From an uncultured Porphyromonadaceae bacterium (GTDB lineage Bacteria; Bacteroidota; Bacteroidia; Bacteroidales; UBA12481), in NCBI GenBank assembly GCA_964416825.1, contig CAYQFT010000003.1, positions 1 to 53,062 on the forward strand: a stretch of 53,062 nucleotides of DNA. The letters run 5' to 3'. This document shows positions 4,496 to 53,032 of the stretch, piece after piece (position 1 is the first letter of the stretch; each line of letters begins with the position of its first letter). The notes under the pieces were generated by a model. It was not told the DNA's origin. It saw only the letters and a list, made by a program, of their open reading frames with translations, and did no database searches. Position numbers and translations under genes: made by a program.

Positions 4496-4505
4496 TTATT
4501 TACAG

Positions 4506-16088: not shown

Positions 16089-16114
16089 GTAGAGACGCAT
16101 AAATGCGTCTCTAC
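16089..16114. terminator. Perfect 12-bp palindrome, likely a bidirectional terminator or REP-like element
   Basis: GTAGAGACGCAT-AA-ATGCGTCTCTAC lies between the convergent SOD and DUF2961 genes. A related element with core GGACGCAT-GT-ATGCGTCC is at 18407-18424. Confidence 0.65.
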
Positions 16115-18424: not shown

Positions 18425-18460
18425 CTACAGCTGCCTCGCCACAAATAACGTGTTTCGGTT

Positions 18461-18509
18461 CACGGGTCACGTGTCACGTTTTCCGCGTCACGCATCACGC
18501 GTCACGATC
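18461..18509. repeat. Heptanucleotide tandem array (7 units) overlapping the stop codon of the homocysteine methyltransferase gene
   Basis: CACGGGT CACGTGT CACGTTT TCCGCGT CACGCAT CACGCGT CACGATC, all in 7-nt phase. In the gene's sense orientation the unit is CGTGACG, the same unit as at 52890-52924 and 19680-19700. Confidence 0.8.
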
Positions 18510-19386: not shown

Positions 19387-19387
19387 A

Positions 19388-23027: not shown

Positions 23028-23701
23028 CAGGCTATATGTTTGTTCAGGAATTCAACGGCTCCCTGCGGATCCGGTGAATACCAGTCGGCCCCTATGCGAA
23101 CCCTGAAATCATCGGTTACCGGCGCACCACCGACAAGAATTTTTGTATCAGGTTTTGCAGCCTTGATCTCATGAACAATCTTTTCCATATTGAGCATGGT
23201 GGTTGTGAGCAGGCAGCTCAGGCCAATAAATGCTCCCGGGTGCTGATCCACTGCGGCCATGAATTTGGCAGCAGGAACGTCGATGCCAAGGTCGACAACT
23301 TCCCAGCCTGCACCTTCAACGATCATGCCAAGCAGGTTTTTACCGATGTCATGGAGGTCCCCCATGACCGTACCGATAATGAAAACGCCTTTACGCTTTA
23401 CTGCACCCGACTGAAAATAGGGCTTAAGGTGCTTCATCCCTGCGCTCATGGATTTGGCTGCCATTAAAACTTCGGGAACGAAAACCTTGTTTTCACGAAA
23501 TTTTACTCCAATAATCTGCATGCCGGGCACCAATCCCTTCTGCAGCACCTCATCTGCCGGAATTCCGGCAGCAAGAGCCTGAACGGTAAGTTCATCGGCA
23601 CCGTCCTGTTCTTTCATATCGGGTGGGAAAGGAGAGGTTTTATTAACTTTACCTCTTTCAACGCATTTTGCAATCTTGGCAAGTAATTCTTCAGGGTTCA
23701 T
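23027..23701 (-). CDS. Corrinoid (cobalamin-binding) methyl-carrier protein
   Basis: 224 aa. B12-binding_2 cap followed by a Rossmann domain with DxHxxG (GDLHDIGKNLL), SCLLTTTM and VGGAPV motifs. Confidence 0.9.
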   Translation of the reverse strand: MNPEELLAKIAKCVERGKVNKTSPFPPDMKEQDGADELTVQALAAGIPADEVLQKGLVPGMQIIGVKFRENKVFVPEVLMAAKSMSAGMKHLKPYFQSGAVKRKGVFIIGTVMGDLHDIGKNLLGMIVEGAGWEVVDLGIDVPAAKFMAAVDQHPGAFIGLSCLLTTTMLNMEKIVHEIKAAKPDTKILVGGAPVTDDFRVRIGADWYSPDPQGAVEFLNKHIA

Positions 23702-37488: not shown

Positions 37489-37496
37489 CTTATCTC

Positions 37497-37530
37497 ATTT
37501 CAACATTTCCACATTTCCACTTTTCAACAT
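37497..37530. repeat. Octanucleotide tandem array (4 units)
   Basis: ATTTCAAC ATTTCCAC ATTTCCAC TTTTCAAC, abutting the sigma-factor stop codon (37531-37533) and ending 8 nt before the anti-sigma start codon. Confidence 0.75.
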
Positions 37531-38094
37531 TTATACTGCTGCCATAATCTGCAACAGTTTCTGCTTCCCCCTCGAGAGCTGCGCCCGGCTTGTTGAGGCG
37601 GGCACCCCGAGTATCTGTCCGATCTCATCATGATCGTATCCTTCAAAAAGGCTCAGATTAAGGACCATCCGATATTTTTCGGGAAGCAACTGCATCGCGC
37701 GTTTCACTTTGCGTACCTTTTCCTCAACTGTTTCCTCTTCATTTTGCCAATCCGGTTCAGGAATGATCTCGTCTGGTATGTCAGCAACCAGATCAACCTG
37801 GTCTTTCCTTTTTCTCAACGCATCTAAAGAACGATTTACCACAATCCTTTTCAGCCATCCGCCGAAACTCGTATTCAGGTCAACGGTTCCCAGGTTCTGA
37901 AAAGCGGTAAGAAAGGCTTCCTGCATAACATCTTCTGCTTCCATCCGGTCACCTAATATTCTTAGGCTCACGTGGTACATCGGCCTGAAGTAGAGACGGT
38001 ATACCTTCATTTGTGCTTCCGTGTTGCCTTTTTTGCAACTTTCCAGCAACTCATGGTGCATGATCCTATTTACGGTTCCGGGTTCCATTTTCAA
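37531..38094 (-). CDS. ECF-type RNA polymerase sigma-70 family factor
   Basis: 187 aa. Region 2: EDVMQEAFLTAF. Region 4 HTH: MVLNLSLFEGYDHDEIGQILGVPASTSRAQLSRGKQKL. Confidence 0.9.
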   Translation of the reverse strand: MKMEPGTVNRIMHHELLESCKKGNTEAQMKVYRLYFRPMYHVSLRILGDRMEAEDVMQEAFLTAFQNLGTVDLNTSFGGWLKRIVVNRSLDALRKRKDQVDLVADIPDEIIPEPDWQNEEETVEEKVRKVKRAMQLLPEKYRMVLNLSLFEGYDHDEIGQILGVPASTSRAQLSRGKQKLLQIMAAV

Positions 38095-38173: not shown

Positions 38174-38377
38174 TCAGCCTCCTGAGATCATATGAATTAT
38201 CTCAACGATATCGCCTTCCTTAATTGCAGCTTCCTCCCATTGCGGCTTCCGAACCAGCTGCCCGTTAATCTTTATCACCAGGTTTGGGAACGTAAAGTTC
38301 TTTAATATCAGAACCTGACGGATGGTGAGTTCATCGCCAGGAAGCTGTTCGGAGTTGTTGTTCAGCGTAATGTTCAT
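38174..38377 (-). CDS. thiS: ThiS/MoaD-family sulfur-carrier protein
   Basis: 67 aa with a beta-grasp-like pattern, ending in the diagnostic C-terminal GG (IIHMISGG). Confidence 0.75.
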   Translation of the reverse strand: MNITLNNNSEQLPGDELTIRQVLILKNFTFPNLVIKINGQLVRKPQWEEAAIKEGDIVEIIHMISGG

Positions 38378-39587: not shown

Positions 39588-40280
39588 TTAAAGTTGTACT
39601 TTTTTCCCTTTAGAACTGAAGGATTGAGTGCCCAGACCCTGTCCGATTAATTCCAACACAGCAAATTCATACGGATCAAATATCATCCCGAACAAACTGG
39701 TAAAACCAAAAGCATCCTTCATCTGCCCATTAAGGGGCGTTGATGGTCCTAACAGATAGAGTTCGGTTTTTGTTTTAGAATTGGCCAGGATGTCAGAAAG
39801 CGATTTGTTGATCAGACTCGTAGCGGAGATAATTACCTGGCAGGCATCAAGAATGGCTGACGGCAGTTCGGCTGCCGGCGACAGATCCTCGTTTTCTTTT
39901 TGCAGATCGAATGCTTTCAGCGGAAGGCCTTCGCTTTTAAACTTCTCAACAAGAGGCGGAAAGTATCCGATCATGACGGTGGGTTGACTCCTGCTGAACT
40001 GCACCCTGTCGAAGATGTCACCCGCGAGGGTATACTCCTGCTCGTAATTCAGTACGGCATTGGAATAGGCAAGCTGAAAAACTCTGTGATCCTGCCGGTT
40101 TAGATCGATTTTCGTAATCATTTGAGGATCAGATTCAAGAGTGATTCCCAGAGTAGAGGATACCCCAATCTGACCGTTTGCCAGCATGACCCCGAAATAC
40201 ATGTCACCTTTTACCGAAGCGAGTATCTTGCCAGCATCATAGGGGCACTTTTCTGCAAGAAATTCCAGTGGGTCTGTCAT
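39588..40280 (-). CDS. DUF364 (putative heavy-metal chelation domain) protein
   Basis: About 230 aa from Met at 40280. The C-terminal half (IISATSLINKSLSDIL ... LYLLGPSTPL ... FGMIF) matches the Rossmann-like DUF364 pattern as I remember it. The ORF is open to 40322. Confidence 0.55.
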   Translation of the reverse strand: MTDPLEFLAEKCPYDAGKILASVKGDMYFGVMLANGQIGVSSTLGITLESDPQMITKIDLNRQDHRVFQLAYSNAVLNYEQEYTLAGDIFDRVQFSRSQPTVMIGYFPPLVEKFKSEGLPLKAFDLQKENEDLSPAAELPSAILDACQVIISATSLINKSLSDILANSKTKTELYLLGPSTPLNGQMKDAFGFTSLFGMIFDPYEFAVLELIGQGLGTQSFSSKGKKVQL

Positions 40281-40430
40281 GGCTGTATTAAAAATCCAAA
40301 GGTAAAAAACTTGAGAACACATTTGCGATATGCATAAATATGCATAATGACATAAATCATCTAATCATAGGGGGTTGGGTGGCTTTAATGTGCTATTTTT
40401 GTCACAAACGAAAGCAAAAAATTAAGTTTT

Positions 40431-42587
40431 ATGGACGTAAAAACAATGCTTGAAACCCACAAACTTCTGGCTGAATTCCGATACGAAGTTACACCGCTTG
40501 ATAAAGGGTATACGGATAAGGTCCTCTATATTAATATCTCGGATAATACCTTTAAAATAAAGGATGTTCCGCCCGTAATGAAAGAAAAGTTCATCGGAGG
40601 GAAGGGATATGGCCTCAAGTTGCTATGGGATGCCACAAAACCTGATACCAAATGGAACGATCCGGAAAATGAGATCATTATTTCTTCGGGTCCCATTGCC
40701 GGGATTACACAGTATTCCGGCACCGGAAAATCATTGGTGGTGACCCTTTCTCCTGCAAGTAATTCTGTTACAGATAGTAATGCGGGCGGCTATTTCGGGC
40801 CGTTTGTAAAGTTCTCCGGTTTTGATGCCATCGAACTCCAGGGCAAGGCGAAATCCGAAGTGATCATAGTCATCGATGGAACCACCGGAACAGTTAGCAT
40901 CGAGGAGGCTCCCCGGGAGCCGCTTGACAGCCATGTGCTCAGCGAAATCCTGACAGAGATGTACGCATCGGACGCCGACAGCAAGCACAATGTCTCCGTG
41001 ATTACAACCGGAATGGCAGCAGAGCACAGCTGGGTCGGAATGATGAACTTCAGTTTCTTTGATAAGAAGAAAAATCGCGTACGCTTGAAGCAGGCCGGAC
41101 GCGGAGGAACCGGAACCGTTCTGAGGAACAAGAAGGTAAAAGCCATCGTCTGCAAGATTCCGGGTGTGAAAGGAAATCTCAACAATGTTGTTGACCTGCC
41201 GGCCATCATGGAAAGGGGGAAGCGGTTTAACACAGAAATCCGGGAACTGGATGACAAGCAATGTGAAATGCGCACCAAGGGAACTGCCCACCTAATGGAG
41301 ATCATGAATGACTATGATCTGCTGCCAACAATGAATTACAAATATGGTTCTCACCCTGATGCATACAAGATTGATTCGGAAATATGGAAATCCAGGTTTA
41401 AGCAAGGTACACCTGACGGTTGCTGGATTGGATGTAACATGGGCTGCGCAAAAGCAGTAGATCCCTATATCGTAAAAACGGGTCCCTATGCTGGTGAAGA
41501 CGTGCTGGTTGATGGCCCTGAATATGAGAATGCTGCCGGATTAGGTTCAAACTGTGGAATCTTTGATCCGGACTATATTATCGAGGCCAATTTCTATTGC
41601 GACACCTACGGTATGGATACCATCAGCTGGAGCACCATGATGGCTTTCATCATGGAGTGCTATGAAGCTGGTGTCCTCACCAAGGAACGGACCGGCGGTC
41701 TGGAGCTGAACTGGGGTAATACCGAAGCTGCAATTGAACTGCTGCACCAGGTTGCCCGCGGAGAAGGATTTGGGTTGATTGCAGGCAAAGGTATCCGCAA
41801 GATGAAGGAACATTTTACGAAGGAATTCGGTGCGGATCCGAAATTCCTGCAGGATATCGGAATGGAAAACAAGGGACTGGAATATTCAGAGTACGTGTCC
41901 AAGGAGTCGCTCGCCCAGCAGGGAGGTTTTGCCATGACAAACAAAGGCCCGCAACATGATGAAGCCTGGCTGATTTTTATGGATATGGTTAATAATCACA
42001 TTCCTACGTTTGAAGCCAAGGCTGAAGCCTTACACTATTTTCCGATGTTCAGAACCTGGTTTGGCCTGGTCGGATTATGCAAGCTTCCTTGGAATGATGT
42101 GGAACCCGCCAATAATGCCGAAACAAGCGAACCGGCCAAGGTCCCGGAACATGTTGATAATTACGTTACTATTTATAAAGCGGTTACGGGACGCGACTTT
42201 GACAACAAGCGTTTGATTGAAGACTCAGAGCGAGTCTATAATTTCCAGCGGGTTTTCAACCTGAGGAGAGGCTATGGCGTAAGAAAATATGACGCACAAC
42301 CCTTCAGGGCTGCCGGACCGGTTACTCAGGAAGAATATGAAAGCCGCGCCGAGCGCTATGATAAACAGCTGAAAGAACAGGTTGGCTTTGACCCTGAAGG
42401 AAAGACCACAGAGGAAAAGCATAATGCGCTCCGGGCATACCGCGAAGGACGTTATGAGCAACTCCTTGATGCCGTATACAATCGCAGGGGCTGGAATAAG
42501 AATGGCGTACCTAAGATCGAGTTTCTCAAGAAGATCGGCATGGACCTCCCGGAAGTACTGGAGGTGGTTGCGCCGTTTCAAGAGTAG
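40431..42587 (+). CDS. Aldehyde:ferredoxin oxidoreductase family (tungstopterin enzyme)
   Basis: 718 aa. AFOR_N start: DKVLYINISDNTFKIKDVP..KFIGGKGYGLKLLWD. Cluster/pterin region: DGCWIGCNMGCAK. Long AFOR_C domain. Confidence 0.88.
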   Translation: MDVKTMLETHKLLAEFRYEVTPLDKGYTDKVLYINISDNTFKIKDVPPVMKEKFIGGKGYGLKLLWDATKPDTKWNDPENEIIISSGPIAGITQYSGTGKSLVVTLSPASNSVTDSNAGGYFGPFVKFSGFDAIELQGKAKSEVIIVIDGTTGTVSIEEAPREPLDSHVLSEILTEMYASDADSKHNVSVITTGMAAEHSWVGMMNFSFFDKKKNRVRLKQAGRGGTGTVLRNKKVKAIVCKIPGVKGNLNNVVDLPAIMERGKRFNTEIRELDDKQCEMRTKGTAHLMEIMNDYDLLPTMNYKYGSHPDAYKIDSEIWKSRFKQGTPDGCWIGCNMGCAKAVDPYIVKTGPYAGEDVLVDGPEYENAAGLGSNCGIFDPDYIIEANFYCDTYGMDTISWSTMMAFIMECYEAGVLTKERTGGLELNWGNTEAAIELLHQVARGEGFGLIAGKGIRKMKEHFTKEFGADPKFLQDIGMENKGLEYSEYVSKESLAQQGGFAMTNKGPQHDEAWLIFMDMVNNHIPTFEAKAEALHYFPMFRTWFGLVGLCKLPWNDVEPANNAETSEPAKVPEHVDNYVTIYKAVTGRDFDNKRLIEDSERVYNFQRVFNLRRGYGVRKYDAQPFRAAGPVTQEEYESRAERYDKQLKEQVGFDPEGKTTEEKHNALRAYREGRYEQLLDAVYNRRGWNKNGVPKIEFLKKIGMDLPEVLEVVAPFQE

Positions 42588-42684
42588 TCAGGAGTCTGGA
42601 GCCAGGAGTCGGGAGTCGGGAGTCGGGAGTCGGGAGTCGGGAGTCGGAAGTCAGGAGACTCCTGACTCCAGACTCCCGACTTTT
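42588..42684 (+). repeat. Heptanucleotide array (10 direct plus 3 inverted units) forming a terminator-like hairpin
   Basis: Starts 1 nt after the AOR stop: TCAGGAG TCTGGAG CCAGGAG TCGGGAG x5 TCGGAAG TCAGGAG, then A, then CTCCTGA CTCCAGA CTCCCGA, then C TTTT. The last 21 nt of the direct array pair with the inverted units at 19/21 positions. Confidence 0.9.
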
Positions 42685-42701
42685 CATATCTTTGCGCCCC
42701 G

Positions 42702-44156
42702 ATGACTGAAGAAAGACTAGAGGCAAAGAGCAGGGAGCTGGGCGACGAAAAAATTCCCCGACTAATGTGGAAGTACTTTCTTCCGGCGTTTGTCGGGGTT
42801 ATCATGAATGCTACATACAACATCGTTGACCGGATCTTTATCGGTCAGGGTGTCGGGTCCATGGCGCTCTCCGGACTTAGTGTGGTTTTCCCAATTATGC
42901 TCATCGTGATGGCCTTTGGCATGCTGATTGGCATGGGTGCAGGGGTGCAGGTTTCCATCAATATGGGAAGGAAAGATTTCTCCCGGGCCGAAAAGGTGCT
43001 GGGGAACGGAGTATTCCTGATGGTTGTGGTGGGCCTTTTTGTCACCTTTCTGGGGTTCCTGATTAAGGGCCCGATGCTAAGAGCTTTCGGAGCCACCGAC
43101 GAAACCATCCGGTATGCTCAGGATTACCTCAACATCATCCTGGTCGGTGTGGTGTTTCAGATGATCGGCTTTGGCCTCAACAACATAATCCGCGCTGAAG
43201 GGAACGCCCGGATCGCCATGCTTTCCATGCTCCTGAGCGGTGGCATCAACCTGGTGCTGGACCCTATTTTTATTTTCGTTTTCGATCTTGGTGTTAAAGG
43301 AGCTGCTTATGCTACCGTCATTGCCATGATGGCACTGGATGTTTGGGTCCTACTGCATTTTACAAGCAAGCGTGCAGTAATCAGACTTCGGATGCCTAAT
43401 ATCAGGCCCAACTGGAAAATTATCGGGCTCATCATTTCCATCGGAATGGCGCCATTCTTTATGCAGTTGGGATCCAGCGCAGTTAATGCACTCTTCATGA
43501 ATCAGCTGATCAAACATGGAGGAGACCTTGCAGTCGGCGCCCTGGGGATCATTGCATCAGTAGCCCAATTATTGGTCATGTCAATGGTTGCCATTAACAT
43601 GGCCAGCCAGCCAATCGTGGGTTTCAATTTCGGAGCGCGGAACTACTCCCGCGTTAAGGAAACTGTCAGAACCGGGATTCTGGCCGCTACTGCTATTGGT
43701 GTTTTCGGATGGCTGATCGTCCAGATCTTCCCCCATTTTATTGTACGCCTGTTTAATTCCGATGACCCGGTGCTCTTTGATATCGCGGATAAAGGATTAC
43801 GTATCTTTTTGCTGACATTACCGCTGGTCGGTTTCCAGGTAATAGCCGCCAATTTTTTTCAGAGCATCGGTAAGGCTAAAATGGCCACCTTCCTGTCACT
43901 GCTGCGGCAACTGATCATACTGGTCCCGGCCCTGCTTATCCTGCCTGAGATATTCGGTCTGAAGGGAGTATGGCTTTGCAGCCCGGTGGCCGATGTGACT
44001 TCAGCCATCATTACCGGATCATTCCTCCTTTGGCAGGTCAGAAAACTCGGAACAGAGGATCCTGATAAGATTGCTGGCGGAAAGCCCCATCCCGGACCTG
44101 ATGATGATGCAGCAACACGTGCCGTTGAGTCTTTTCAGATTGTTACACCGGAATAA
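42702..44156 (+). CDS. MATE-family efflux transporter
   Basis: 484 aa with 12 predicted TM segments. N-terminal IPRLMWKYFLPAFVGVIMNATYNIVDRIFIGQ is typical of MatE. Confidence 0.85.
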   Translation: MTEERLEAKSRELGDEKIPRLMWKYFLPAFVGVIMNATYNIVDRIFIGQGVGSMALSGLSVVFPIMLIVMAFGMLIGMGAGVQVSINMGRKDFSRAEKVLGNGVFLMVVVGLFVTFLGFLIKGPMLRAFGATDETIRYAQDYLNIILVGVVFQMIGFGLNNIIRAEGNARIAMLSMLLSGGINLVLDPIFIFVFDLGVKGAAYATVIAMMALDVWVLLHFTSKRAVIRLRMPNIRPNWKIIGLIISIGMAPFFMQLGSSAVNALFMNQLIKHGGDLAVGALGIIASVAQLLVMSMVAINMASQPIVGFNFGARNYSRVKETVRTGILAATAIGVFGWLIVQIFPHFIVRLFNSDDPVLFDIADKGLRIFLLTLPLVGFQVIAANFFQSIGKAKMATFLSLLRQLIILVPALLILPEIFGLKGVWLCSPVADVTSAIITGSFLLWQVRKLGTEDPDKIAGGKPHPGPDDDAATRAVESFQIVTPE

Positions 44157-44188
44157 TCTTCTACTTTTATCAGGATAAATCAAACCTG

Positions 44189-46585
44189 ATGAATAAGCCT
44201 GTTTTTTACCTGCTGTGGCTGGCTCTTGCCGCATTCCTGTCCTTAACCTCCTGCCAGTTTCAAGGTGACTCTTCACCATTGAGCGAAGCGGTCTGGATTT
44301 CTGATAATGAACCTCTTCCTTCGGAAGACAGCCTTTTTTATCTGGATCATCCGGCTCCGCTTTTTCGGACTTCATTTTCAATAGAAGGCCAAGTTCGGAA
44401 GGCAGAATTGTACATAACGGCAGCCGGATATTATGAAACCTGGATAAACGGCCGGCCGGTTGGCGGCCAGCAGCTGGATCCAGCCTGGACCGACTACCGA
44501 AAGCGGATTTATGTAACCAAAATTGACGTTACGGATCAGTTAGTCAAGGGGGAAAATATCTGGGGAATCATGCCGGGGAACGGATTCTATAATCCCCTGC
44601 CGCTGAAAATGTGGGGTGGGCGGAATATCCGAAAAGCCCTACCAGTAGGGAAGCCTTCGGTCATTGCATCCCTGTGCGTGACTCTTCGGAGCGGGAAGGA
44701 AGTCAAGATATCAACATCCGGCGACTGGCTTTGGACTAGCGGACCGGTTATTCGCAATAGCGTATATCTGGGAGAATGGTTTGATGCCAGAAAGGCAACT
44801 GCGAATTGGTGTCTGCCCGGAACTGACCTTGTGGCCTGGAAGCCGGTTACCGCGGTGGAAGGGCCGGGTGGCAAGCTCCTGGAGGCAGGTTTTCCGCCCA
44901 TACGGGTGACTAAATGGATCGACCCAATTGCAATACGGAGTGATTCACTAAACCGGACGATTGTTGATTTCGGACAGAACCTGGCCGGTGTGCCAAGGAT
45001 CAGGATCAAGGCCGATCAGGGAGACACCATACGCTTCCGGTATGGTGAGCTTTTATATGCCGATGGCTCAGTCAACCCGATGACCACCGTCTGCGGTCAA
45101 ATCAAAAGGCATGGGGTAGGAGGGCCCGGTGCTCCCGATGTGGCTGAACAGGTCGATATATACATTGCCGGGGGCGCCGATCCTGAGTTTTTCCAGCCCC
45201 GTTTCACCTTCAATGGCTTCAGGTACATGGAAATATCAGGCTTGGACTATATTCCTGCAAAAGAAGATATTCAGGCAGGACGAATGAATACGGATGTGCA
45301 GGCTGCTGGCCGGATTAAGAGTTCATCGGAGTATCTGAATAAACTGAATGAAGTGTGCCAATGGACCTTCCTGAGCAATCTGTTCAGTGTTCAATCCGAT
45401 TGTCCTGCCCGTGAAAAGTTTGGTTATGGAGGTGATATTAATGCAACGGCAGAAGCATATATATACAATTTCGACATGCAGTCCATTTACCAGAAGGTGA
45501 TCTATGACTGGGTGGATGCCATGAAGAAGGATGGTTTCATCGACACGGCCCCTTTCGTGGGTATAGAGTACTGCGGCATCAGCTGGGAATCAGCCTTTTT
45601 GTTTTTACAGGATTGGCTTCTGATTCATTACCAGGATATTGATCTCATTCGTGAGCTCTATGAAATGGACCGTGAGTGGATGGATAAAGTGGCCAGGCTG
45701 CATCCGGGATTATTGGTGGATGACGGATTAAGCGACCATGAGAGCCTGCTGAAAGTACCGGTAGAACTTACCGGGACCTGCCATTACCTGCAGGCTGCCC
45801 GAACCATGGAACGTTTTGCCAGGCTTCTCGGAAAGGAAAGTGAAGCGGGAAGTTATGCAGGACTTGCAGAGAAGATCCGGACCGTTTTGATAGATAAATT
45901 CTGGAACGAGCCGGATATTGAGGTACCCAACAAACAGACTCTTCTGGCTTCTTTGCTGTACTTCAAAGTTTTGGATCCGGATCAGGAAAAACTAGCTCTG
46001 GCTCGGCTGCTAGAAACAATACAACAAAATGATTATCATGTAACTACTGGTATTTTTGGGACCAAGTACCTGCTAGATGCCCTCTCTTCAAACGGCCGTA
46101 CCGACATCGCCTACAAAATGGTTACCCAATCCGGTTTTCCGGGCTGGAAACATATGTTGGATCAGGGAGCTACGACATTGTGGGAAACGTGGAAGGAGAG
46201 TGACAATACCTATTCTCAGAACCATCCGATGTTCGGCTCCGTTTCAGAATGGTACATCAAATGGCTCGGTGGCATCCAGCCCGATCAGGAGAATCCGGGA
46301 TCCGGCGTAATCCTGTTGCAGCCCCGGCCGGTGAAGGACCTTGGTGCGCTCACATCGGAAAAAACAGTTGCAGGAGGTACCATTCGCAGCAAATGGTGGT
46401 GGGAAGGTGAAAAGCTTCATCTGGAATTTGATGTGCCACCGGGAAAAGAGGCTGAATGGGTTCCTGAATCGAAAAAATCCGCCATTGAGGTTATTGACCA
46501 TCCTAAAGGGTGGAGCAACAAAGAGTTAGCCGGTGAGGGACGGGTACGGCTTCATAAAAGCGGTAAGTACCATTTTATCATATAG
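44189..46585 (+). CDS. Alpha-L-rhamnosidase (GH78) with signal or lipoprotein leader
   Basis: 798 aa. Leader ...LSLTSCQ. The six-hairpin domain motif SDCPAREKFGYGGD and overall length fit GH78. Confidence 0.75.
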   Translation: MNKPVFYLLWLALAAFLSLTSCQFQGDSSPLSEAVWISDNEPLPSEDSLFYLDHPAPLFRTSFSIEGQVRKAELYITAAGYYETWINGRPVGGQQLDPAWTDYRKRIYVTKIDVTDQLVKGENIWGIMPGNGFYNPLPLKMWGGRNIRKALPVGKPSVIASLCVTLRSGKEVKISTSGDWLWTSGPVIRNSVYLGEWFDARKATANWCLPGTDLVAWKPVTAVEGPGGKLLEAGFPPIRVTKWIDPIAIRSDSLNRTIVDFGQNLAGVPRIRIKADQGDTIRFRYGELLYADGSVNPMTTVCGQIKRHGVGGPGAPDVAEQVDIYIAGGADPEFFQPRFTFNGFRYMEISGLDYIPAKEDIQAGRMNTDVQAAGRIKSSSEYLNKLNEVCQWTFLSNLFSVQSDCPAREKFGYGGDINATAEAYIYNFDMQSIYQKVIYDWVDAMKKDGFIDTAPFVGIEYCGISWESAFLFLQDWLLIHYQDIDLIRELYEMDREWMDKVARLHPGLLVDDGLSDHESLLKVPVELTGTCHYLQAARTMERFARLLGKESEAGSYAGLAEKIRTVLIDKFWNEPDIEVPNKQTLLASLLYFKVLDPDQEKLALARLLETIQQNDYHVTTGIFGTKYLLDALSSNGRTDIAYKMVTQSGFPGWKHMLDQGATTLWETWKESDNTYSQNHPMFGSVSEWYIKWLGGIQPDQENPGSGVILLQPRPVKDLGALTSEKTVAGGTIRSKWWWEGEKLHLEFDVPPGKEAEWVPESKKSAIEVIDHPKGWSNKELAGEGRVRLHKSGKYHFII

Positions 46586-46588
46586 ACT

Positions 46589-47539
46589 ATGAGAGGGTTA
46601 CGATTTTTGATAGCGGCATGTGCAGCAGGAATGACGTTAGGGCTATGCTCGTGCGGAAATCGGCAAAAAACTGGAAAATCTGAGACATTAACAATTATAC
46701 ATGCCGGAAGTCTTTCTGTTCCCATGCGGAATTTGAAGGATGCGTTTATTCTTGAAAACCCGGGAGTTGAAGTCAGGATGGAAGCAGCTGGAAGCATCCA
46801 GTGCATCCGTAAGATTACCGATTTACACCAGCCTTGTGATGTCCTTGCTGTTGCAGATTTTTCGCTGATTGATGATCTGATGTTTCCGGAATATGCGGAT
46901 TGGAATATCCGGTTCGCGACCAACGAGCTTTGCCTTGCATATACTGAAAAATCAAGAGGAAGCCAGGAAATTAATGCCAGCAACTGGTTCACTTTTTTGC
47001 TGAAACCTGATATCTCTTTTGGGCGGAGTGATCCGGATTCCGATCCCTGCGGTTACCGGACCCTTATGGCTCTTCAATTATCTGAAAAATACTATGCGGG
47101 TGGAATCGAATGGGAAGAGATCGCGACTAAGGATCAGCAATACATCCGGTCTAAAGAGACCGACCTGAATGCTTTGCTGGAATCCAGGGCTATTGATTAC
47201 ATTTTTACCTACCGGTCTGTGGCGGTTCAGCATAACTTCCTGCATATTAGGTTCCCTGATTCCATTAACCTCAGTGACCCGGGGCTGGATAACTGGTATT
47301 CAACCGTTTCAGTTGAAATACCCGGATCGGAACCCGGTAAACGCATTGTAAAAAACGGAGCTTCAATGTATTACGGGATTACAATACCGAAACATAGTGA
47401 AAATCCTGCCCTGGCGAAACGATTTATTCAGTTCATTCTGGATCCGGCAAAGGGAGGCAAAATCATCCGGGCAACCGGCCAAAATGTGATACCCCCGGCC
47501 TTCACAGAAAAAAGCATCGGAACCGATGGACTTTTTTAA
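46589..47539 (+). CDS. wtpA: Tungstate/molybdate ABC transporter substrate-binding lipoprotein, WtpA type
   Basis: 316 aa. Lipobox LGLCSC. Motifs: IIHAGSLSVPM, EAAGSIQCIRKIT, DPCGYRTLMALQL, YGITIPKHSENPALAKRFIQF, closely matching archaeal/bacterial WtpA as I recall it. Confidence 0.8.
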   Translation: MRGLRFLIAACAAGMTLGLCSCGNRQKTGKSETLTIIHAGSLSVPMRNLKDAFILENPGVEVRMEAAGSIQCIRKITDLHQPCDVLAVADFSLIDDLMFPEYADWNIRFATNELCLAYTEKSRGSQEINASNWFTFLLKPDISFGRSDPDSDPCGYRTLMALQLSEKYYAGGIEWEEIATKDQQYIRSKETDLNALLESRAIDYIFTYRSVAVQHNFLHIRFPDSINLSDPGLDNWYSTVSVEIPGSEPGKRIVKNGASMYYGITIPKHSENPALAKRFIQFILDPAKGGKIIRATGQNVIPPAFTEKSIGTDGLF

Positions 47540-47569
47540 CAATCCTGATAAAAATTAGGATTTGTGATA

Positions 47570-47597
47570 TTCGATATGTTTTTATTTGCATATCGAA
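47570..47597. promoter_or_regulatory. 9-bp perfect inverted repeat in the wtpA-TonB receptor spacer (candidate operator or RNA stem-loop)
   Basis: TTCGATATG-N10-CATATCGAA. The half-site ATATCG loosely resembles molybdate-regulator operator half-sites. No regulator gene in the window. Confidence 0.3.
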
Positions 47598-47614
47598 ACC
47601 ATAATTGAAACAAT

Positions 47615-49918
47615 ATGAAAAAAAGGATTCTTATTTCTGCTTTGCTTGCTTTGACACTCTTTTCAACCGCGATTGGCCAGATGGTTATCCGGGGGATTGT
47701 TATGGATGCTCAAAACGGACAAGCCTTATCGGGTGCAAATATTCAGGACAGCAGGACGGGCAAAGGTACTGCAGCCGCGACTGATGGCAAGTTTACCCTG
47801 GACCTTGGCAGCGATAAACAAACAACCCTCCGGATCAGTTTCCTGGGATATGAGCCGGAAGAGCTAAGCGTAAATAAGAAATCCGGAGCCAGCCTTATCG
47901 AAATAAAGTTGAGTCCAACCTCCATAAATTCCAATGCCGTGGTTGTGACCGGTACAAAGAACCAGCGGCGCATTCGCGAGATTCCCGGGCGCACGGAATG
48001 GCTGACGGCTAAACAGCTGGAGGCAATTCCCGCTACTCAGGCGGATGATTACCTGCGGACCTTGCCGGGTATTCAGGTCAGCCGGGAACATGGAATCCTG
48101 GATCACAACAGCACCGTTAGCATGCGAGGATTGGGGGGCAGCCAGCAGGGAAGGTATCTGGTCCTGATGGATGGAGTACCGATGAATAAGGCAGATGGCG
48201 GATCAGTGAACTGGAACAGCATCAATACGGATGATATTATGCAGGTAGAGGTTGCCAAAGGCCCCGGGTCTTCCCTTTATGGCGGCAATGCCATGGGCGG
48301 GGTCATGAACTATATCCGGAGAAAGCCGTCAACGCCCCTTGAAGGATCTGCCCATGTTGAATACGGGAGCCTGAATACCCGGCGCGGACGTTTTTCAATC
48401 GGTGGGAATCCTGCCTCACTCGATAACAAGTTCTATTGGTCGGTTCAGGGATTTGGCGCACTCAGCGATGGTTACAATCAGGTGCCTGAGGCGGATCGTG
48501 ATTCAACCGATGTTGCCGGTGGTTTGCAGGAATGGGGTGGGGGAATACGCGCCGGCTACCGGATCAATAAAAACCATCAGGTTGAAATAAGTTCCGGATA
48601 TTGGTCGGATCGCCGCGGGTCCGGAACAAAAATCTTCAGTGAAACCGGTACCTTTTTCGGTCATCAGGTTTGGGATAATTCAGTAAAATATACGGGCAGA
48701 GCCGGGAAAACCAACTGGTCAGCTGTTGGCTATATCACCGATGAAGATTACGAAAGGCTGAATGAATCCATCAAACCCAAGGGGAATTCATATACCTACA
48801 CATCCTATTCGGTAACCTCTGACCGGAAGGACAAGGGAATCATGCTCCATGCGGACCACAGGGCCGGTATAAACCTGATTTCGGTAGGCGGTGATTACAA
48901 GGATGGATCGGTTTTGGGCAAGGATGTCTATACAACTTCATCCGATGTTGTAAATAACATGGGAAAACTCCGGAGCTTTTCTGCCTATATTCAGGATCAG
49001 CTGACAGTTATTAATGAAAAACTTTTCCTTGTTGGCGGATTGCGCTACGACCGGGCGGTTTTTTATGACGGAGCTTTCTTTGTAACGGACCCGACATCGG
49101 CAACCAGCATACTCGGAGAATTGCAGAAACTGGAGCTGGAAAAGAATGTCTGGTCGGAGCTAAGTCCAAAACTGGCACTGAAATATTCCTCACCTGCCGG
49201 TATCGGAGCCTATATTTCCTACGGTCACGGTTTCAGGCCCTCCATCCTTGATGATATGTGCAGGTCGGGCTTCATCAGCGGAGGTTTTAAACGTGCAAAC
49301 CCTTACCTGGGGCCCGAGAAACTGAACAACTTCGAAATCGGTGCAGATATCCCCTTCCTTAAACGGTTAAATTTCTCAGCGAGCGCTTATTATTCAATGG
49401 GAAAGGATTTTATCTACCTGGTAAGTTCTGGAGATTCCATTTTGCAGGGAACGAAATTGAAGCCTCTTCTCGAAGCTCAAAACATATCCGGAGTCAGGAT
49501 CATGGGAATGGAAACCTCACTCCGCGCCGAACTCGGAAACGGGCTAACCGGCTATCTGAATTATGCCTATACAAATGCTCTGGTTTCCGATTATCAGCCT
49601 ACATTTGGCAAGGCTGACCTGAAAGGGAAGGTTCTTGTGTATGTTCCGGAACATCAGGTTTCAGCGGGAATGACCTGGAGAAATCGATGGGTGAACCTGC
49701 ATGTTCAGGGATCCTGGTTAAGTGAGCAATGGATGGATGATGTGAATACAGTTTCCATACCGGCCTTTTTCAAGCTGGATGCGAGAATCTGGAAGGAATA
49801 CAGAGGCTTTCAGGTTTTCATAAACGGACAGAATCTGACCAATACCGTTTATCTGGAAGGGCATGGATTATTATCGCTGGGACGTTTTATTACAGGAGGT
49901 ATCGGATATCAATTTTAA
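47615..49918 (+). CDS. TonB-dependent outer-membrane receptor with CarboxypepD_reg-like N-terminal domain
   Basis: 767 aa. Signal peptide, VIRGIVMDAQNGQALSGANI (carboxypeptidase-regulatory-like), plug region, and a beta-barrel ending in GGIGYQF. Confidence 0.85.
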   Translation: MKKRILISALLALTLFSTAIGQMVIRGIVMDAQNGQALSGANIQDSRTGKGTAAATDGKFTLDLGSDKQTTLRISFLGYEPEELSVNKKSGASLIEIKLSPTSINSNAVVVTGTKNQRRIREIPGRTEWLTAKQLEAIPATQADDYLRTLPGIQVSREHGILDHNSTVSMRGLGGSQQGRYLVLMDGVPMNKADGGSVNWNSINTDDIMQVEVAKGPGSSLYGGNAMGGVMNYIRRKPSTPLEGSAHVEYGSLNTRRGRFSIGGNPASLDNKFYWSVQGFGALSDGYNQVPEADRDSTDVAGGLQEWGGGIRAGYRINKNHQVEISSGYWSDRRGSGTKIFSETGTFFGHQVWDNSVKYTGRAGKTNWSAVGYITDEDYERLNESIKPKGNSYTYTSYSVTSDRKDKGIMLHADHRAGINLISVGGDYKDGSVLGKDVYTTSSDVVNNMGKLRSFSAYIQDQLTVINEKLFLVGGLRYDRAVFYDGAFFVTDPTSATSILGELQKLELEKNVWSELSPKLALKYSSPAGIGAYISYGHGFRPSILDDMCRSGFISGGFKRANPYLGPEKLNNFEIGADIPFLKRLNFSASAYYSMGKDFIYLVSSGDSILQGTKLKPLLEAQNISGVRIMGMETSLRAELGNGLTGYLNYAYTNALVSDYQPTFGKADLKGKVLVYVPEHQVSAGMTWRNRWVNLHVQGSWLSEQWMDDVNTVSIPAFFKLDARIWKEYRGFQVFINGQNLTNTVYLEGHGLLSLGRFITGGIGYQF

Positions 49919-49929
49919 AATTGTAAAAC

Positions 49930-50997
49930 ATGATTATGAAAATATTACCATTCATTTCGCTGGTGGCACTGCTGTTGCCGGCCTGTAATTCAGCCGAGAA
50001 ATCCGGGCAAGGACCATCCGGGATTCAGGTGGCAGCCATTGACTCCGCCGACCAGACCAATGATTTTTACGACAATGTGCCTGCATTTGATCTGCAGGGC
50101 TCACAGATAGTGGAAATTGGGGGCGAAGTCGCCGAAACCATGCAGGTTGACCTCAAGACTCTCCCCCGAAGAAGTGTTATCGTTAAGGAAACAAATTTCC
50201 TTGAGGGTAAGGTCGGCTTTGTTGGCGCCTATCGCTATGATGGGGTGTCTCTGTACGACATTCTCAACCGGGTTCAGGTGCGCAAGAAGAATCTGGAGGA
50301 ATTCAAGCCGATTATTGACCAGTACGTAGTTGTGTACGGAGCCTCCGGGGATTCGGTCGTGTTCAGCTGGGGCGAGATATACTACCCGATAGTGCCGCAT
50401 CAGATCATCATTGCTGACAAAGTTTTGAGGATTGTCCCGAGTAAAACAAAGGATCAGTGGCCGCTGCCGGTGAAAATGAAGGTTATTGCCGGGATTGACC
50501 TGGTTACCGAAAGGAACATTGACGACCCGGTCAGAATCATAGTCCGGACCGTCGGCATTCAGTATAAAGTGGATCGGACCGTTAAGTTTTGGGCGCCAGA
50601 TATGCTTCTCAAGGGCATGGGTGACCAGGAGGCAACCTTAACGGAGCTTCCATCGGGATTGAATCCGCAGGTACTGGATCAGGTTTTTTATGGACGGGGA
50701 ATGGGTATTCATGGAATCACACAGTTCAAAGGAGCATGGCTCAAAGATCTTCTTTTTGATAAATTGCCGCTGACACCGGAAAGAATAAAAGCCGGACTTT
50801 TCGTAATTGCCGCAGTTGACGGATATCGTTGTGCAATGACCTATTCAGAACTGATGAACCGGAATGACAATGCCGGGGTTCTTGTTATGGATGAGAATAA
50901 TTATGAAAATGCCGGAAAGTTCTCATGCATTTTCGGGGCTGATTTTTTCTCAGACCGCGCAATAAAATCCATGACGGAGATCCGGTTGGTACATTGA
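49930..50997 (+). CDS. Lipoprotein of unknown function with internal duplication
   Basis: 355 aa. Leader ...LLLPACNS. Two roughly 120-aa halves share the pattern G-x-V...L..LP...G...F/Y.G..L.D.L...V....DG. No family securely recognised. Confidence 0.5.
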   Translation: MIMKILPFISLVALLLPACNSAEKSGQGPSGIQVAAIDSADQTNDFYDNVPAFDLQGSQIVEIGGEVAETMQVDLKTLPRRSVIVKETNFLEGKVGFVGAYRYDGVSLYDILNRVQVRKKNLEEFKPIIDQYVVVYGASGDSVVFSWGEIYYPIVPHQIIIADKVLRIVPSKTKDQWPLPVKMKVIAGIDLVTERNIDDPVRIIVRTVGIQYKVDRTVKFWAPDMLLKGMGDQEATLTELPSGLNPQVLDQVFYGRGMGIHGITQFKGAWLKDLLFDKLPLTPERIKAGLFVIAAVDGYRCAMTYSELMNRNDNAGVLVMDENNYENAGKFSCIFGADFFSDRAIKSMTEIRLVH

Positions 50998-51033
50998 TGG
51001 TTACCTTAGCAGGGTAATTTTTCCGATGTACAG

Positions 51034-51831
51034 ATGAAGCGATCCGGACTAACGCTTGTGTTTGCAATCCTTGGCGGGTTGGTGCTTCTTTTTATCGTAG
51101 CCCCTCTTGCGGGTCTCTTCCTGAAGACTACTCCGGCTCAGTTTTTTGAAACGGCAGCAGATCAGGAGGTTACAGGAAGTATTTATCTTACGCTCGGGGT
51201 CTCCTTTGCAACTACCCTGGTTTTTGCTCTGGGTGCGGTACCGCTGGCTTTCCTGCTTGCACGGCATTCATTTAAGGGCAAGATTGTGGTTCAGTCGCTG
51301 GTGGACCTGCCAATAGTGATCCCGCACTCAGCCGCTGGTATCGCTTTGCTGGGAATGGTATCGAGGGATACCTGGCTCGGACAGGCTGCTTCTGCAATCG
51401 GGCTTGATTTTGTCGGGCATCCTTTAGGGATCGGTATCGCCATGGCTTTTGTGAGTGTCCCTTTCCTTATCCAGTCGGCCCAGGATGGATTTTTACAGGT
51501 GCCGGCAAGGCTTGAGCAGGCAGCCATGAACCTCGGCGCTTCCGGCTGGAAAACCTTTTTGACAATAAGCCTCCCATTGGCCCGAAGGAACATCCTGACC
51601 GGACTGGTGATGATGTTTTCCCGGGGGCTAAGCGAGTTTGGCGCTATCGTGATTATTGCTTATCATCCCATGGTGACACCAGTATTGATTTACGAGCGTT
51701 TCGGAGCATTCGGATTAAAATACTCCCGCCCTATAGCGGCGCTTTTTGTCCTGATATGCCTGGTGTTTTTTGTCATGCTCCGAATTCTTGCCAACAAACG
51801 TTACAATGATCCGGCTTCAAAACATATCTAA
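51034..51831 (+). CDS. wtpB: Tungstate/molybdate ABC transporter permease
   Basis: 265 aa, about 6 TM segments. EAA loop: LEQAAMNLGASGWKTFLTISLPLARRNILTG. Confidence 0.8.
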   Translation: MKRSGLTLVFAILGGLVLLFIVAPLAGLFLKTTPAQFFETAADQEVTGSIYLTLGVSFATTLVFALGAVPLAFLLARHSFKGKIVVQSLVDLPIVIPHSAAGIALLGMVSRDTWLGQAASAIGLDFVGHPLGIGIAMAFVSVPFLIQSAQDGFLQVPARLEQAAMNLGASGWKTFLTISLPLARRNILTGLVMMFSRGLSEFGAIVIIAYHPMVTPVLIYERFGAFGLKYSRPIAALFVLICLVFFVMLRILANKRYNDPASKHI

Positions 51832-52864
51832 AAAAATCGGGGACTTTAGGTTGCAGGGTATTACCCTTGAGATTACCGAGGGCAGCTATACGGTTTTACT
51901 GGGAGACTCAGGATCCGGAAAAACCCTTCTGCTTGAATTATTGGCAGGCCTTCACCGTGCGGACAGCGGCAAAATTTTGGTTGATGATGTTGAAGTCCAG
52001 GGCAGGCCAATACAGGACCGGCCTTTCGGAATCGTATTCCAGGATCTGGCTCTTTTCCCGCACATGAGTGTGCGTAAAAACATTTCCTATCCCCTATTTA
52101 TGAAAAAGGTGTTGCGATCCTCTGTTGATGATGAGGTCGCTGGGCTTGCCCGAAAATTTGAGATTTCCCACCTGCTCGATCGCTTCCCCGGAACTTTGTC
52201 AGGAGGGGAGAAGCAGCGGGTGGCAATTGCCCGCACACTGGCCACGCATCCGGCGTGTCTGCTGCTCGATGAACCCCTGACGGCCCTGGATGCAAGGATA
52301 CGCAAGGAGATAAAATCTGTTCTGCGGTGGCTGCATCGTGAAGGCCAGACTGTCATTCACGTTACCCATGATTACCAGGAAGCCATTGAACTGGCCAGTA
52401 ATATCGGCATCATGGAAAAGGGCCGGCTGATTCAGTTCGGGCCGGCAGAAGAGATTCTCCGCAATCCGGTTAACACGTTTACCGCACATTTTACCGGAAT
52501 CCGCAATTTCATTAAAGTCACACTGGAGAAGGATCCCGTAACCGGAAACACCCGGAGCATGACCGGGAATGGTATCCCGATTGCGTTAGAAACTCACAAA
52601 TCGGACGGGTGGGGGTATGTCATCATTCCCGAGGATGCCATCTTCCTCTCCACTCATCCGGTTGATACCAGTGCTGCCAATACGTTTCGGGGCATCATCA
52701 CGGACATGGCATCGGTGCCGCATGGGATCGAGGTGACCATTGATGCGGGATTTCCGCTGTATGCCCTGCTAACCAGGGAAGGAATCGACCGGCTGAACCT
52801 TGCGATCGGCTGCACCGTATGGGCAAGTTTCAAGGCCACCGCCGTGCGGTTTGTTAAGAAGTAG
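51806..52864 (+). CDS. wtpC: Tungstate/molybdate ABC transporter ATPase with C-terminal TOBE/Mop-like domain
   Basis: Start at ATG 51806 (MIRLQNISKK) preferred over the ORF start at 51770. Walker A GDSGSGKT, signature LSGGEKQRVAIAR, Walker B LLLDEPL. A roughly 120-aa C-terminal extension. Confidence 0.85.
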   Translation: MIRLQNISKKIGDFRLQGITLEITEGSYTVLLGDSGSGKTLLLELLAGLHRADSGKILVDDVEVQGRPIQDRPFGIVFQDLALFPHMSVRKNISYPLFMKKVLRSSVDDEVAGLARKFEISHLLDRFPGTLSGGEKQRVAIARTLATHPACLLLDEPLTALDARIRKEIKSVLRWLHREGQTVIHVTHDYQEAIELASNIGIMEKGRLIQFGPAEEILRNPVNTFTAHFTGIRNFIKVTLEKDPVTGNTRSMTGNGIPIALETHKSDGWGYVIIPEDAIFLSTHPVDTSAANTFRGIITDMASVPHGIEVTIDAGFPLYALLTREGIDRLNLAIGCTVWASFKATAVRFVKK

Positions 52865-52889: not shown

Positions 52890-52924
52890 CGTGACGCGTG
52901 ACGCGCTACCCGTGAAGCGAGATC
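52890..52924. repeat. Heptanucleotide tandem array (5 units)
   Basis: CGTGACG CGTGACG CGCTACC CGTGAAG CGAGATC, located 26 nt after the wtpC stop. The unit and gene-relative orientation match the array at 18461-18509. Confidence 0.8.
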
Positions 52925-53000
52925 CCCCATGCCCTTCTGCCCCTATGCCCCTATGCCCCTATGCCCCTATTCCCTTATGCCCCCATACCCCTATGCCCCA
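52924..53000. repeat. Octanucleotide tandem array (about 9.5 units) followed by a T run
   Basis: CCCCCATG CCCTTCTG CCCCTATG x3 CCCCTATT CCCTTATG CCCCCATA CCCCTATG CCCCA, then TTTTT. Confidence 0.85.
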
Positions 53001-53032
53001 TTTTTATTATCTTGCATTCAAATCTTAATCCC

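Follow-up and report, generated by a model that had tools for sequence, protein, structure and literature searches.

The reason for the existence of tandem repeats of 7 or 8 bases in intergenic DNA has been a standing question since the STRR sequences were described in 1990. These were reportedly found by Mazel et al. in that year in heterocystous cyanobacteria, as tandem heptanucleotides scattered through intergenic DNA. The STRR families are made up of a few fixed units, CCCCAGT, TTGGTCA, and CAACAGT. Here, we describe arrays of 7- and 8-base units in a 53,062-nt stretch of DNA (the window) from an uncultured Porphyromonadaceae bacterium of the order Bacteroidales (GenBank assembly GCA_964416825.1, contig CAYQFT010000003.1, positions 1 to 53,062), with emphasis on the focal array, which lies between the genes for an aldehyde:ferredoxin oxidoreductase (AOR) and a MatE efflux protein. 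An earlier inspection of the letters alone, referred to below as the sequence-only reading, had listed these arrays and pointed out that many of them begin at stop codons.

The closest described systems are G-rich heptamer repeats, reported by Rehm et al. 2015 (PMC4692102) from Xanthomonas (GGGAATC) and Nostoc PCC 7120 (GGGGAYT). These repeats are intergenic, are depleted between divergent open reading frames (ORFs), and show a strong tendency to lie at most 50 bp from a stop codon or overlap it, with the G-rich strand being the sense strand. They are sometimes present as tandemly inverted pairs able to form stem-loops, and transcripts often end there. TAACTGA direct repeats were reported by MacGregor 2015 (PMC4679880) from Beggiatoaceae, cyanobacteria, and five Bacteroidetes, including the Bacteroidales member Paludibacter. 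They are mostly located just upstream of start codons, and both horizontal spread and translational control were proposed for them. The spacers concerned also contain other heptamer arrays, close relatives have shorter, repeat-free spacers, and repeats holding stop triplets necessarily end ORFs. A 2025 survey (PMC12699852) found that bacterial short tandem repeats favour positions downstream of gene ends and that repeat density is high in Bacteroidota; Huang and Mrazek 2014 (PMC4060949) contains nothing specific on Bacteroidetes heptamers.

Stop Codon Anchoring

The arrays are probably slippage microsatellites that were born in place at the stop codon, with coding constraint on their upstream side, terminator or promoter signals on their downstream side, and some of them co-opted as terminator stems. 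Their placement was analyzed in a wider sample consisting of the window and 80 related loci (1.46 Mb), using Tandem Repeats Finder (TRF) as the array caller for window and relatives alike and a simple longest-ORF gene caller. This sample contains 109 strong arrays (at least 3 copies and a score of at least 36), with periods of 7 (55 arrays), 8 (23), 6 (6), and 9 (4) bases. Period-7 and period-8 arrays are found in 50 spacers, made up of 17 of 118 convergent (14%), 25 of 470 co-directional (5%), and 8 of 188 divergent (4%) spacers, and the convergent and divergent occupancies differ significantly (p = 0.002). Where the flanking genes are co-directional, the array lies nearer to the stop than to the next start in 20 of 25 spacers (p = 0.004). 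A conservative null with uniform placement of the array block in what is left of its spacer predicts that 5.9 array-bearing spacers abut a stop (within 3 nt). The observed number is 17, a value that was reached in 0 of 200,000 simulations (P < 5e-6), and the number abutting a start is 3 against 3.8 expected. The anchoring to stops that the sequence-only reading had proposed to compare with random expectation is real and lineage-wide, yet not exclusive. As a placement rule it is not new, having been reported by Rehm et al. 2015 (PMC4692102).

Within the window, all arrays of the earlier list were recovered by TRF, which finds 10 intergenic arrays and 1 within a coding sequence. The intergenic ones occupy 7 of the 23 spacers of at least 15 nt, and by type these are 2 of 3 convergent, 5 of 17 co-directional, and 0 of 3 divergent spacers. 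Eight of the arrays are strong by the threshold above, and none appeared in 50 dinucleotide-preserving shuffles. On a gene map built from the ORF list and Pfam, six arrays (8974, 15248, 16022, 18460, 37496, and 42586) overlap a stop or begin 0 to 2 nt past one, as had been noted before. The stops concerned are those of GDH (8971), the C-terminal protein of a split LanB (15250), SOD (16022), and AOR (42587), together with two on the minus strand, those of a homocysteine S-methyltransferase-like gene (18502) and an ECF sigma factor (37531). All six are native stops, because Pfam domains extend to within a few residues of each C-terminus.

The generalization that every intergenic array lies on the 3' side of a gene fails, as eight divergent spacers in relatives carry arrays. 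Likewise, the statement that 5' and promoter spacers are free of arrays holds for the window and for nothing wider; with only 3 divergent spacers in the window it was a weak observation, a small-sample effect that does not extend to the relatives. Arrays of this divergent (5'-5') kind are found, for example, upstream of AOR in four related metagenome-assembled genomes (MAGs; L040, L047, L054, and L056), where ATTTGCG is repeated four times (around 9676-9880) and the divergent gene has its -7 box some 20 nt away. Beside this conserved array lies a hypervariable one: three of the MAGs have differing arrays at that site (CTACTGC, AATTCTT, CCTTTCAA, and CTTCAGAC), and L056 has a longer insert that is not an array.

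Junction Structure and Strand Bias

The boundary between gene and array was examined in 21 arrays starting within 5 nt of a stop by scoring, position by position, the self-match one period downstream. The self-match is 0.05 to 0.48 in the coding tail, 0.33 at the first base of the stop, 0.67 at the second, and 0.86 at the third, and it is 0.6 to 0.95 inside the arrays. In 7 of the 21 arrays, all three stop bases are found again one period further on. Anchoring as a trivial result of stop-rich units was considered and rejected: about half of the stop-abutting units hold a stop triplet, which is near the expectation from composition, and the triplet is absent from the focal unit, from GACGGAC, and from TTRCTGG.

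Stop-abutting arrays are also biased in strand. Their sense strand is 65% purine and has more G than C in 19 of 23 cases, compared with 40% of 691 array-free 3' flanks (p = 5e-5). Among co-directional spacers, G exceeds C in 11 of 14 stop-abutting arrays but in 5 of 16 others (p = 0.014). The co-directional arrays located away from the stop tend to be rich in C and pyrimidines, and some of them are the inverted partners of stop-abutting arrays.

It is conceivable, though we consider it very unlikely, that some mutational process tied to translation termination gives rise to the arrays and makes them grow. As an example, nascent RNA left bare past the stop could form R-loops where the non-template DNA is G-rich, and the resulting replication stall could lead to slippage. 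The sharp boundary with a periodicity that begins inside the stop codon, the G>C bias of the sense strand, and the enrichment in convergent spacers speak for such a process, since none of them simply follows from free space alone. However, the same boundary is also obtainable from coding constraint combined with microhomology at the stop purines, arrays also occur in divergent 5' spacers, and in L002 and L072 arrays at stops have a C-rich sense strand. The R-loops themselves are conjectural, and the process offers no explanation for a period of 7 or 8 nt.

The AOR-MatE Spacer

The AOR gene (40431-42587, plus strand) ends with a TAG at 42585-42587. Its AFOR_N and AFOR_C Pfam domains reach residue 703 of 718, and its C-terminus, ...VVAPFQE*, is common to the relatives. 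Directly behind the stop are ten direct units (42588-42657, plus strand) that make up the 5' arm of a hairpin, which in order read TCAGGAG, TCTGGAG, CCAGGAG, five copies of TCGGGAG, TCGGAAG, and TCAGGAG, giving the array a homogeneous core and degenerate edge units. The count of ten in the sequence-only reading is thus correct, but its description of all units as TCNGGAG is not, as two of the ten depart from it. The 3' arm (42658-42680, plus strand) is made up of three inverted units, ACTCCTG, ACTCCAG, and ACTCCCG (42658-42678), followed by AC, and every inverted unit is the exact complement of some unit variant of the direct array. TRF calls the two parts as 10.3 direct heptamers at 42586-42657 (period 7, score 102) and 3.7 inverted heptamers at 42656-42681 (period 7), both on the plus strand.

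A T-run, TTTT (42681-42684, plus strand), opens the U-rich tail TTTTCATATCTTT and is followed by CATATCTTT. Two bases past this run lies the -7 promoter motif TATCTTTG (42687-42694, plus strand), which matches the Bacteroides -7 consensus TAnnTTTG as used in PMC4747536 and others and ends 7 nt ahead of the MatE start codon. The MatE gene itself (42702-44156, plus strand) is identified by its Pfam domain, and its start is backed by a conserved N-terminus, M-[TP]-E-E-R.

The predicted fold of this region has an energy of -59.9 kcal/mol (z = -4.5), and 0 of 200 shuffles are as stable. The minimum free energy stem is 22 to 24 bp long and pairs 42615-42638 with 42657-42680, although the five identical direct units allow the stem to form in several registers. 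There is thus a stable GC-rich stem-loop at the 3' end of AOR, as an intrinsic terminator demands, with equivalents in the relatives L085 and L086, where the U-tract is TTTTT rather than the TTTT of the window. The focal array and its inverted units likely form a terminator-like hairpin, as proposed in the sequence-only reading. From this arrangement, we infer that the hairpin would end AOR transcription and that MatE would have a promoter to itself and a very short leader. Scans for sigma-70 promoters and simple terminators gave background-level results and are uninformative for Bacteroidales. No Rfam covariance model reaches its gathering score anywhere in the window (0 matches), and a tRNA/tmRNA scan of the window found none.

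Inside the direct array lies a canonical G-quadruplex motif, (GGG N4)x4 GGG (42611-42641, plus strand; regex scan). Only one other motif of this kind turned up in the window, likewise within an array. With the G-quadruplex option of ViennaRNA, the focal quadruplex is preferred only until the inverted units are transcribed, after which the hairpin wins, and on the strength of this energy model the quadruplex was rejected as the main focal RNA structure.

The direct arms of the AOR hairpins also resemble Shine-Dalgarno (SD) sequences, with runs of GGAG(G), opposite inverted arms in which CCUCC is anti-SD-like (window 42588-42680, L085 12164-12250, L086 8039-8100). MatE lacks an SD, its leader is at most 7 nt, and the phylum rarely uses SD pairing.

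Turnover of Orthologous Spacers

The relatives of the host are Bacteroidales/Bacteroidota MAGs. Among species-representative genomes, the closest AOR loci share 69-88% protein identity, and nearer AOR relatives, at 90-92%, come from a large protein collection. The AOR-MatE spacer takes many forms among them. It is reduced to 9 nt in L002, holds an ordinary terminator in L003 and two REP-like palindromes or hairpins in L004, is without a repeat array in L001 and L084, and carries a TAAAGGC array in L005, a GGAGGAA array in L085, a GGAGTAA array in L086, and a TCGGGAG array in the window. Orthologous spacers turn over fast. The -7 motif is found at the equivalent position in all 7 relatives with a spacer (L001, L003, L004, L005, L084, L085, and L086), the 9 nt of L002 being too short to hold it.

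Despite this turnover, the window, L085, and L086 have one layout in common: stop, direct heptamers with a GGAG core, complementary CTCC heptamers, T-run, TAnnTTTG, and MatE. The unit pairs differ between species and match within each, being TCAGGAG/CTCCTGA in the window, GGAGGAA/TTCCTCC in L085, and GGAGTAA/TTACTCC in L086, and the respective hairpins fold at -59.9, -44.6, and -29.1 kcal/mol (z = -4.5, -4.2, and -6.6). Such unit-level compensatory change across three species argues for the AOR-end structure being a selected terminator hairpin, whose architecture is kept while its units change.

Alternatively, the arrays may be functional 3'-untranslated region (3'-UTR) or intergenic RNA or DNA elements in their own right, acting as a platform for a single-strand-binding protein with a footprint of about 7 nt (Csp/OB-fold or RRM) or, where G-rich, as G-quadruplexes that would modulate termination, mRNA stability, or downstream expression. 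This seems unlikely to us, but it has several observations in its favor. The arrays follow an orientation rule, with a G/purine-rich sense strand at stops and a C/pyrimidine-rich one nearer to the next gene, and a like rule has been reported for the Xanthomonas and Nostoc repeats (PMC4692102). The focal array holds one of the two canonical quadruplex motifs of the window, the ATTTGCG array upstream of AOR is kept at a similar copy number in four related MAGs, and Csp or S1-type binders were proposed for heptamer repeats by MacGregor 2015 (PMC4679880). Against a function of this kind, there is no common binding motif, as the units differ at nearly every locus and between orthologous sites, and in many close relatives the array is missing from the same site with no other changes. 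The majority of arrays are not capable of forming a quadruplex, and in the thermodynamic model the focal one loses to the hairpin.

Comparison of the same spacer also suggests a source for the focal unit. The ancestral AOR coding tail, as seen in L084 and L003, reads ...TTT CAG GAG TAA, and its last 7 coding bases, TCAGGAG, are the first and last unit of the focal array. The coding tail of the window's own AOR, TCAAGAG, equals the array unit but for one base. The L086 unit, GGAGTAA, corresponds to the last four coding bases of the ancestral tail plus TAA, and in both L085 and L086 the array extends 8 nt into the AOR ORF, so that the final two codons and the stop of the gene are array sequence. 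In L001, the AOR coding tail has a degenerate copy right behind the stop. This match between the focal unit and the ancestral coding tail supports birth in place by slippage, filtered by selection.

A second spacer, from an ABC/TOBE gene to a PpnP-like gene, shows comparable differences. The window has the 8-mer CCCCTATG in 9.5 copies, L002 has ACCCGAT in 9.6 copies beginning 1 nt past the stop, and in L001 only about 13 nt separate the stop and the -7 box. In all three, such a box comes next.

Origin of the Arrays

On the slippage explanation, arrays of the STRR type would start when a short seed at a gene end is duplicated in tandem and undergoes replication slippage, the seed generally including bases 2 and 3 of the stop and in some cases the coding tail as well. 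The arrays would then expand and contract, surviving where gaining or losing a number of bases not divisible by three does no harm, which is the interval from the stop to the next signal, be it a terminator hairpin or a -7 box. Purifying selection would make the stop codon their upstream boundary, and arrays would therefore abut stops. Some arrays would acquire an inverted partial copy and from then on be retained as intrinsic-terminator stems. In the focal spacer, direct and inverted units would give a GC-rich, multi-register stem of 22-24 bp with a U-rich tail, marking the end of AOR transcription, and MatE would then be expressed from its own promoter as a near-leaderless mRNA. Slippage is presumably the process that generates the repeats.

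Several observations weigh against this explanation. A passive filter does not obviously explain the preference for periods of 7 and 8, the very sharp onset at the second base of the stop, or the G/purine bias of the sense strand, as purine-rich stop codons serving as seeds account for only part of the G bias. The unit clearly resembles the coding tail of its own gene in only 5 of 21 arrays. The order of gain and loss at the AOR locus is indeterminable, because the closest relative by AOR identity (L084, 92%) has no array. Unit-number polymorphism was not directly observed in the strain look-ups described below. With regard to the terminator, the focal T-run consists of just 4 T, and the site is absent from the output of the simple terminator scan. 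An origin of units from coding tails was also tried as a general rule and rejected, as it is not significant overall (KS p = 0.18); it is kept for a subset only.

It is extremely improbable that the arrays are products or remnants of a mobile or enzyme-driven element (REP/RAYT, MITE, or reverse transcriptase) or artefacts of assembly. One unit, CGTGACG, is present at three loci of the window, a REP-like palindrome abuts a stop at 16089-16114 and recurs in L004, and a short-read contig breaks inside the focal array, all of which might be expected from such an origin. Yet the specific generating mechanism envisaged in the sequence-only reading is not evident, as no RAYT, transposase, or reverse transcriptase domain was detected by Pfam in the 40 proteins of the window and units are mostly locus-specific. 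Across the 53 kb of this genome, unit dimers (with at most 1 mismatch) occur at one locus each apart from CGTGACG, and no terminal inverted repeats or target duplications are found at the arrays.

The arrays are also reproduced in other assemblies. An independent Joint Genome Institute (JGI) contig, L081, has an identical GDH array with 2 single-nucleotide differences in the 30 nt of GDH coding sequence immediately upstream. A further contig from the same sample, L083, begins within the inverted units of the focal array, which shows that the array is real in that sample and disrupts short-read assembly. Arrays are present as well in the complete chromosome-level MAG assemblies L010 and L013. 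The assembly-artefact reading, which had been raised together with the first description of the arrays, is rejected on the basis of this recurrence in an independent JGI contig, many MAGs, and chromosome-level assemblies. Exact-protein look-ups for strain variants returned none for AOR, SOD, the homocysteine methyltransferase, the Lant_dehydr_C protein, a 186-aa protein, and the DUF2961 protein; with GDH they gave one contig, in which the short array is unchanged, and with MatE a contig beginning inside the array. A metagenome scan with a degenerate AOR-tail pattern gave only a chance match, L082, with no similarity to the window.

A broader proposal is that the arrays are footprints of a process coupled to the end of translation, either R-loop expansion at ribosome release or a 3'-UTR code that spans lineages and is read by a single-strand-binding protein with a 7- to 8-nt footprint. 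We regard this as quite unlikely. If true, it would cover the onset at the second base of the stop and the G/purine bias of the sense strand, as well as the like rules of placement and orientation in Xanthomonas, Nostoc, and Bacteroidales.

Other Arrays and Genes of the Window

The remaining arrays can be grouped by how they relate to hairpins. Two of them sit between a stop and a separate, ordinary terminator hairpin and run up to that hairpin. The first is GACGGAC in 3.9 copies (8974-9000, plus strand, period 7), located 2 nt past the GDH stop in a convergent spacer and followed by a classic terminator with A-tract, 14-bp stem, and T-tract (9003-9043, strand not assigned), which folds at -30.4 kcal/mol (z = -4.9). 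The second is TTRCTGG in 4.4 copies (16022-16052, plus strand, period 7), whose first base is the last base of the SOD stop and which has two hairpins on its 3' side. In two other cases, the arrays make the hairpin themselves as a direct and inverted pair, these being the focal arrays (42586/42656) and the pair at 15248/15292. Here TGATTAG/TTAGTGA in 5.1 copies (15248-15283, plus strand, period 7) carries both TAG and TGA in its unit, the TGA of the first unit being the stop of the Lant_dehydr_C gene, and its imperfect complement follows as ACTATTC/ACCATTC in 7.9 copies (15292-15346, plus strand, period 7). Together they form a long hairpin of -29.9 kcal/mol (z = -6.3) with no T-run behind it.

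The CGTGACG unit is found in three places. On the minus strand, it is present in 6.7 copies (CGTGACG-type in gene sense) at 18460-18506, the stop end of a 396-nt spacer, where the first unit includes the TGA stop of the homocysteine S-methyltransferase-like gene, and in 2.9 copies at 19679-19698, inside a linker of a cobW-like coding sequence, where it covers about 7 codons and keeps the frame. On the plus strand, 2.3 copies (52890-52905, period 7) lie 25 nt past the stop of the ABC/TOBE gene. This last array is followed by the 8-mer CCCCTATG (52924-52999, plus strand), which is C-rich on the sense strand; 8 nt past its end lies an imperfect -7 box, TATCTTGC (53008-53015), and the PpnP-like gene starts at 53033. 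Another 8-mer, ATGTKGAA in 4.6 copies (37496-37532, minus strand), fills the 42-nt spacer from the ECF sigma stop to the next start. For the arrays at 37496, 42656, and 52924, the distance to the start of the following gene is 7, 20, and 33 nt, respectively, which further weakens the statement that promoter spacers are free of arrays.

Proximity to the next gene raises the question of whether the arrays could be phase-variation or expression-tuning switches, in which copy number alters the geometry of a downstream promoter or the structure of a 5'-UTR. A precedent is provided by the 7-bp repeats upstream of the Haemophilus influenzae hmw genes, which are a copy-number expression switch. Control that depends on intergenic simple sequence repeats is also documented elsewhere (PMC12721329). 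Consistent with a switch, several arrays end just ahead of a -7 box (at the focal locus, at 52924, and in L002), and one fills an intercistronic spacer to within 7 nt of the start. Nevertheless, the arrays lie upstream of the -7 box and not between promoter elements, the spacers that are most enriched are the convergent ones, which have no downstream promoter, and the associated genes are housekeeping or metabolic rather than surface or contingency genes. We therefore hold such switches to be highly improbable, and continue to favor slippage at the stop.

In the sense of the minus strand, the array region at 37489-37530 contains four ATGs, the first of which opens an 11-codon mini-ORF whose TGA lies 7 nt ahead of the real start. 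The spacer between the sigma gene and the next gene, occupied in the window by this 8-mer array, holds a hairpin in L085 (CCCGGACTTCAGTCCGGGG, about 7085-7110) and L086 (CCCCAGACTTCAGTCTGGGGG, about 2990-3015) with compensatory stem changes. At 16089-16114 of the window, the DUF2961 stop shares 1 nt with a REP-like palindrome, GTAGAGAC-N10-12-GTCTCTAC, of which two copies fill the AOR-MatE spacer of L004 (12177-12204 and 12226-12253). This palindrome may represent a dispersed hairpin family of the lineage that shares the niche of the arrays.

The genes around the arrays are diverse. AOR itself is set in what is likely a tungsten or molybdopterin supply neighbourhood (38174-38377 on the minus strand and 39588-52864) with a ThiS-like 67-aa ORF, DUF364, a TonB-dependent receptor, and an SBP/permease/ABC-TOBE transporter, and MoeA and a radical-SAM MoaA-like gene are seen in the relatives L084 and L085. 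A split LanB-type lanthipeptide/thiopeptide dehydratase (12201-15250) is made up of Lant_dehydr_N (739 aa) and Lant_dehydr_C (277 aa) proteins whose genes overlap by 4 nt, and it adjoins a futalosine-type menaquinone gene (VitK2_biosynth). On the minus strand, 18502-23701 holds a cluster of the corrinoid methyltransferase type, which consists of two URO-D/MtaA-like proteins (one a thioredoxin-like fusion), a B12-binding protein, a CobW GTPase, and the homocysteine S-methyltransferase-like protein; CGTGACG is found after its last gene and in the cobW linker. Finally, two tandem proteins of 1166 and 995 aa (995-7493) each have a PPDK_N (phosphoenolpyruvate-utilising, ATP-binding) domain, and the second also has a response-regulator receiver domain.

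Significance and Comparison with Known Repeats

The window and its relatives form a tractable series in which one spacer is found empty, with an ordinary terminator, or with various arrays. This makes testable in Bacteroidales how terminators and 3'-UTRs are born from slippage, and whether stop anchoring arises by selection alone or through a translation-coupled mutational process. The arrays matter for MAG annotation as well, as they break short-read assemblies and can shift predicted stops, as in L085 and L086.

Structurally, a comparison can be made with two well-known classes of gene-end element. Like an intrinsic terminator, the focal hairpin is a GC-rich stem-loop just past the end of a gene that runs into a U-rich tail, and L003 uses an ordinary terminator at this very place. 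In contrast, the focal stem is built of heptamers, unusually long (22-24 bp), and multi-register, and has only 4 consecutive U. The arrays share with REP/BIME elements the character of short structured intergenic repeats behind stops, but they are tandem direct repeats rather than dispersed palindromes, and no RAYT gene is found in the window.

Among heptamer repeats, the arrays resemble STRR sequences in being tandem 7-nt units, intergenic, and numerous, and the likeness that had been claimed for a non-cyanobacterial genome is sound, as the units are heptamers or octamers and the relatives are Bacteroidales. They differ in their units (GACGGAC, TTAGTGA, TTRCTGG, CGTGACG, TCGGGAG, and others) and in their Bacteroidales host. 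The TAACTGA repeats differ from the arrays described here, which have many units, are anchored at stops, and give evidence of local origin. The likeness to the repeats of Rehm et al. extends to stop-proximal placement, a G-rich sense strand, and depletion from divergent spacers (4% versus 14% convergent), and the focal unit, written as GGGAGTC, is one base off GGGAATC and has the same (G3N4)n quadruplex motif. This G3+ tract and (G3N1-7)x4 motif are, however, confined to the focal array, the other sense-strand arrays having no G3 tracts. Whereas one unit family dominates in the Rehm repeats, nearly every locus here has its own unit, most units are not quadruplex-capable, 8-mers are common, and the host belongs to the Bacteroidales. 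Neither the origin of a unit from a coding tail nor unit-level compensatory change in a hairpin is described for the Rehm repeats. The arrays thus have the structure and position of the known heptamer class without its few dominant unit families. New here are the uncultured Bacteroidales lineage, the diversity of units, the 8-mers, the onset at the second base of the stop, a unit traceable to a coding tail, and a putative terminator that is built of repeats and conserved with changed units.

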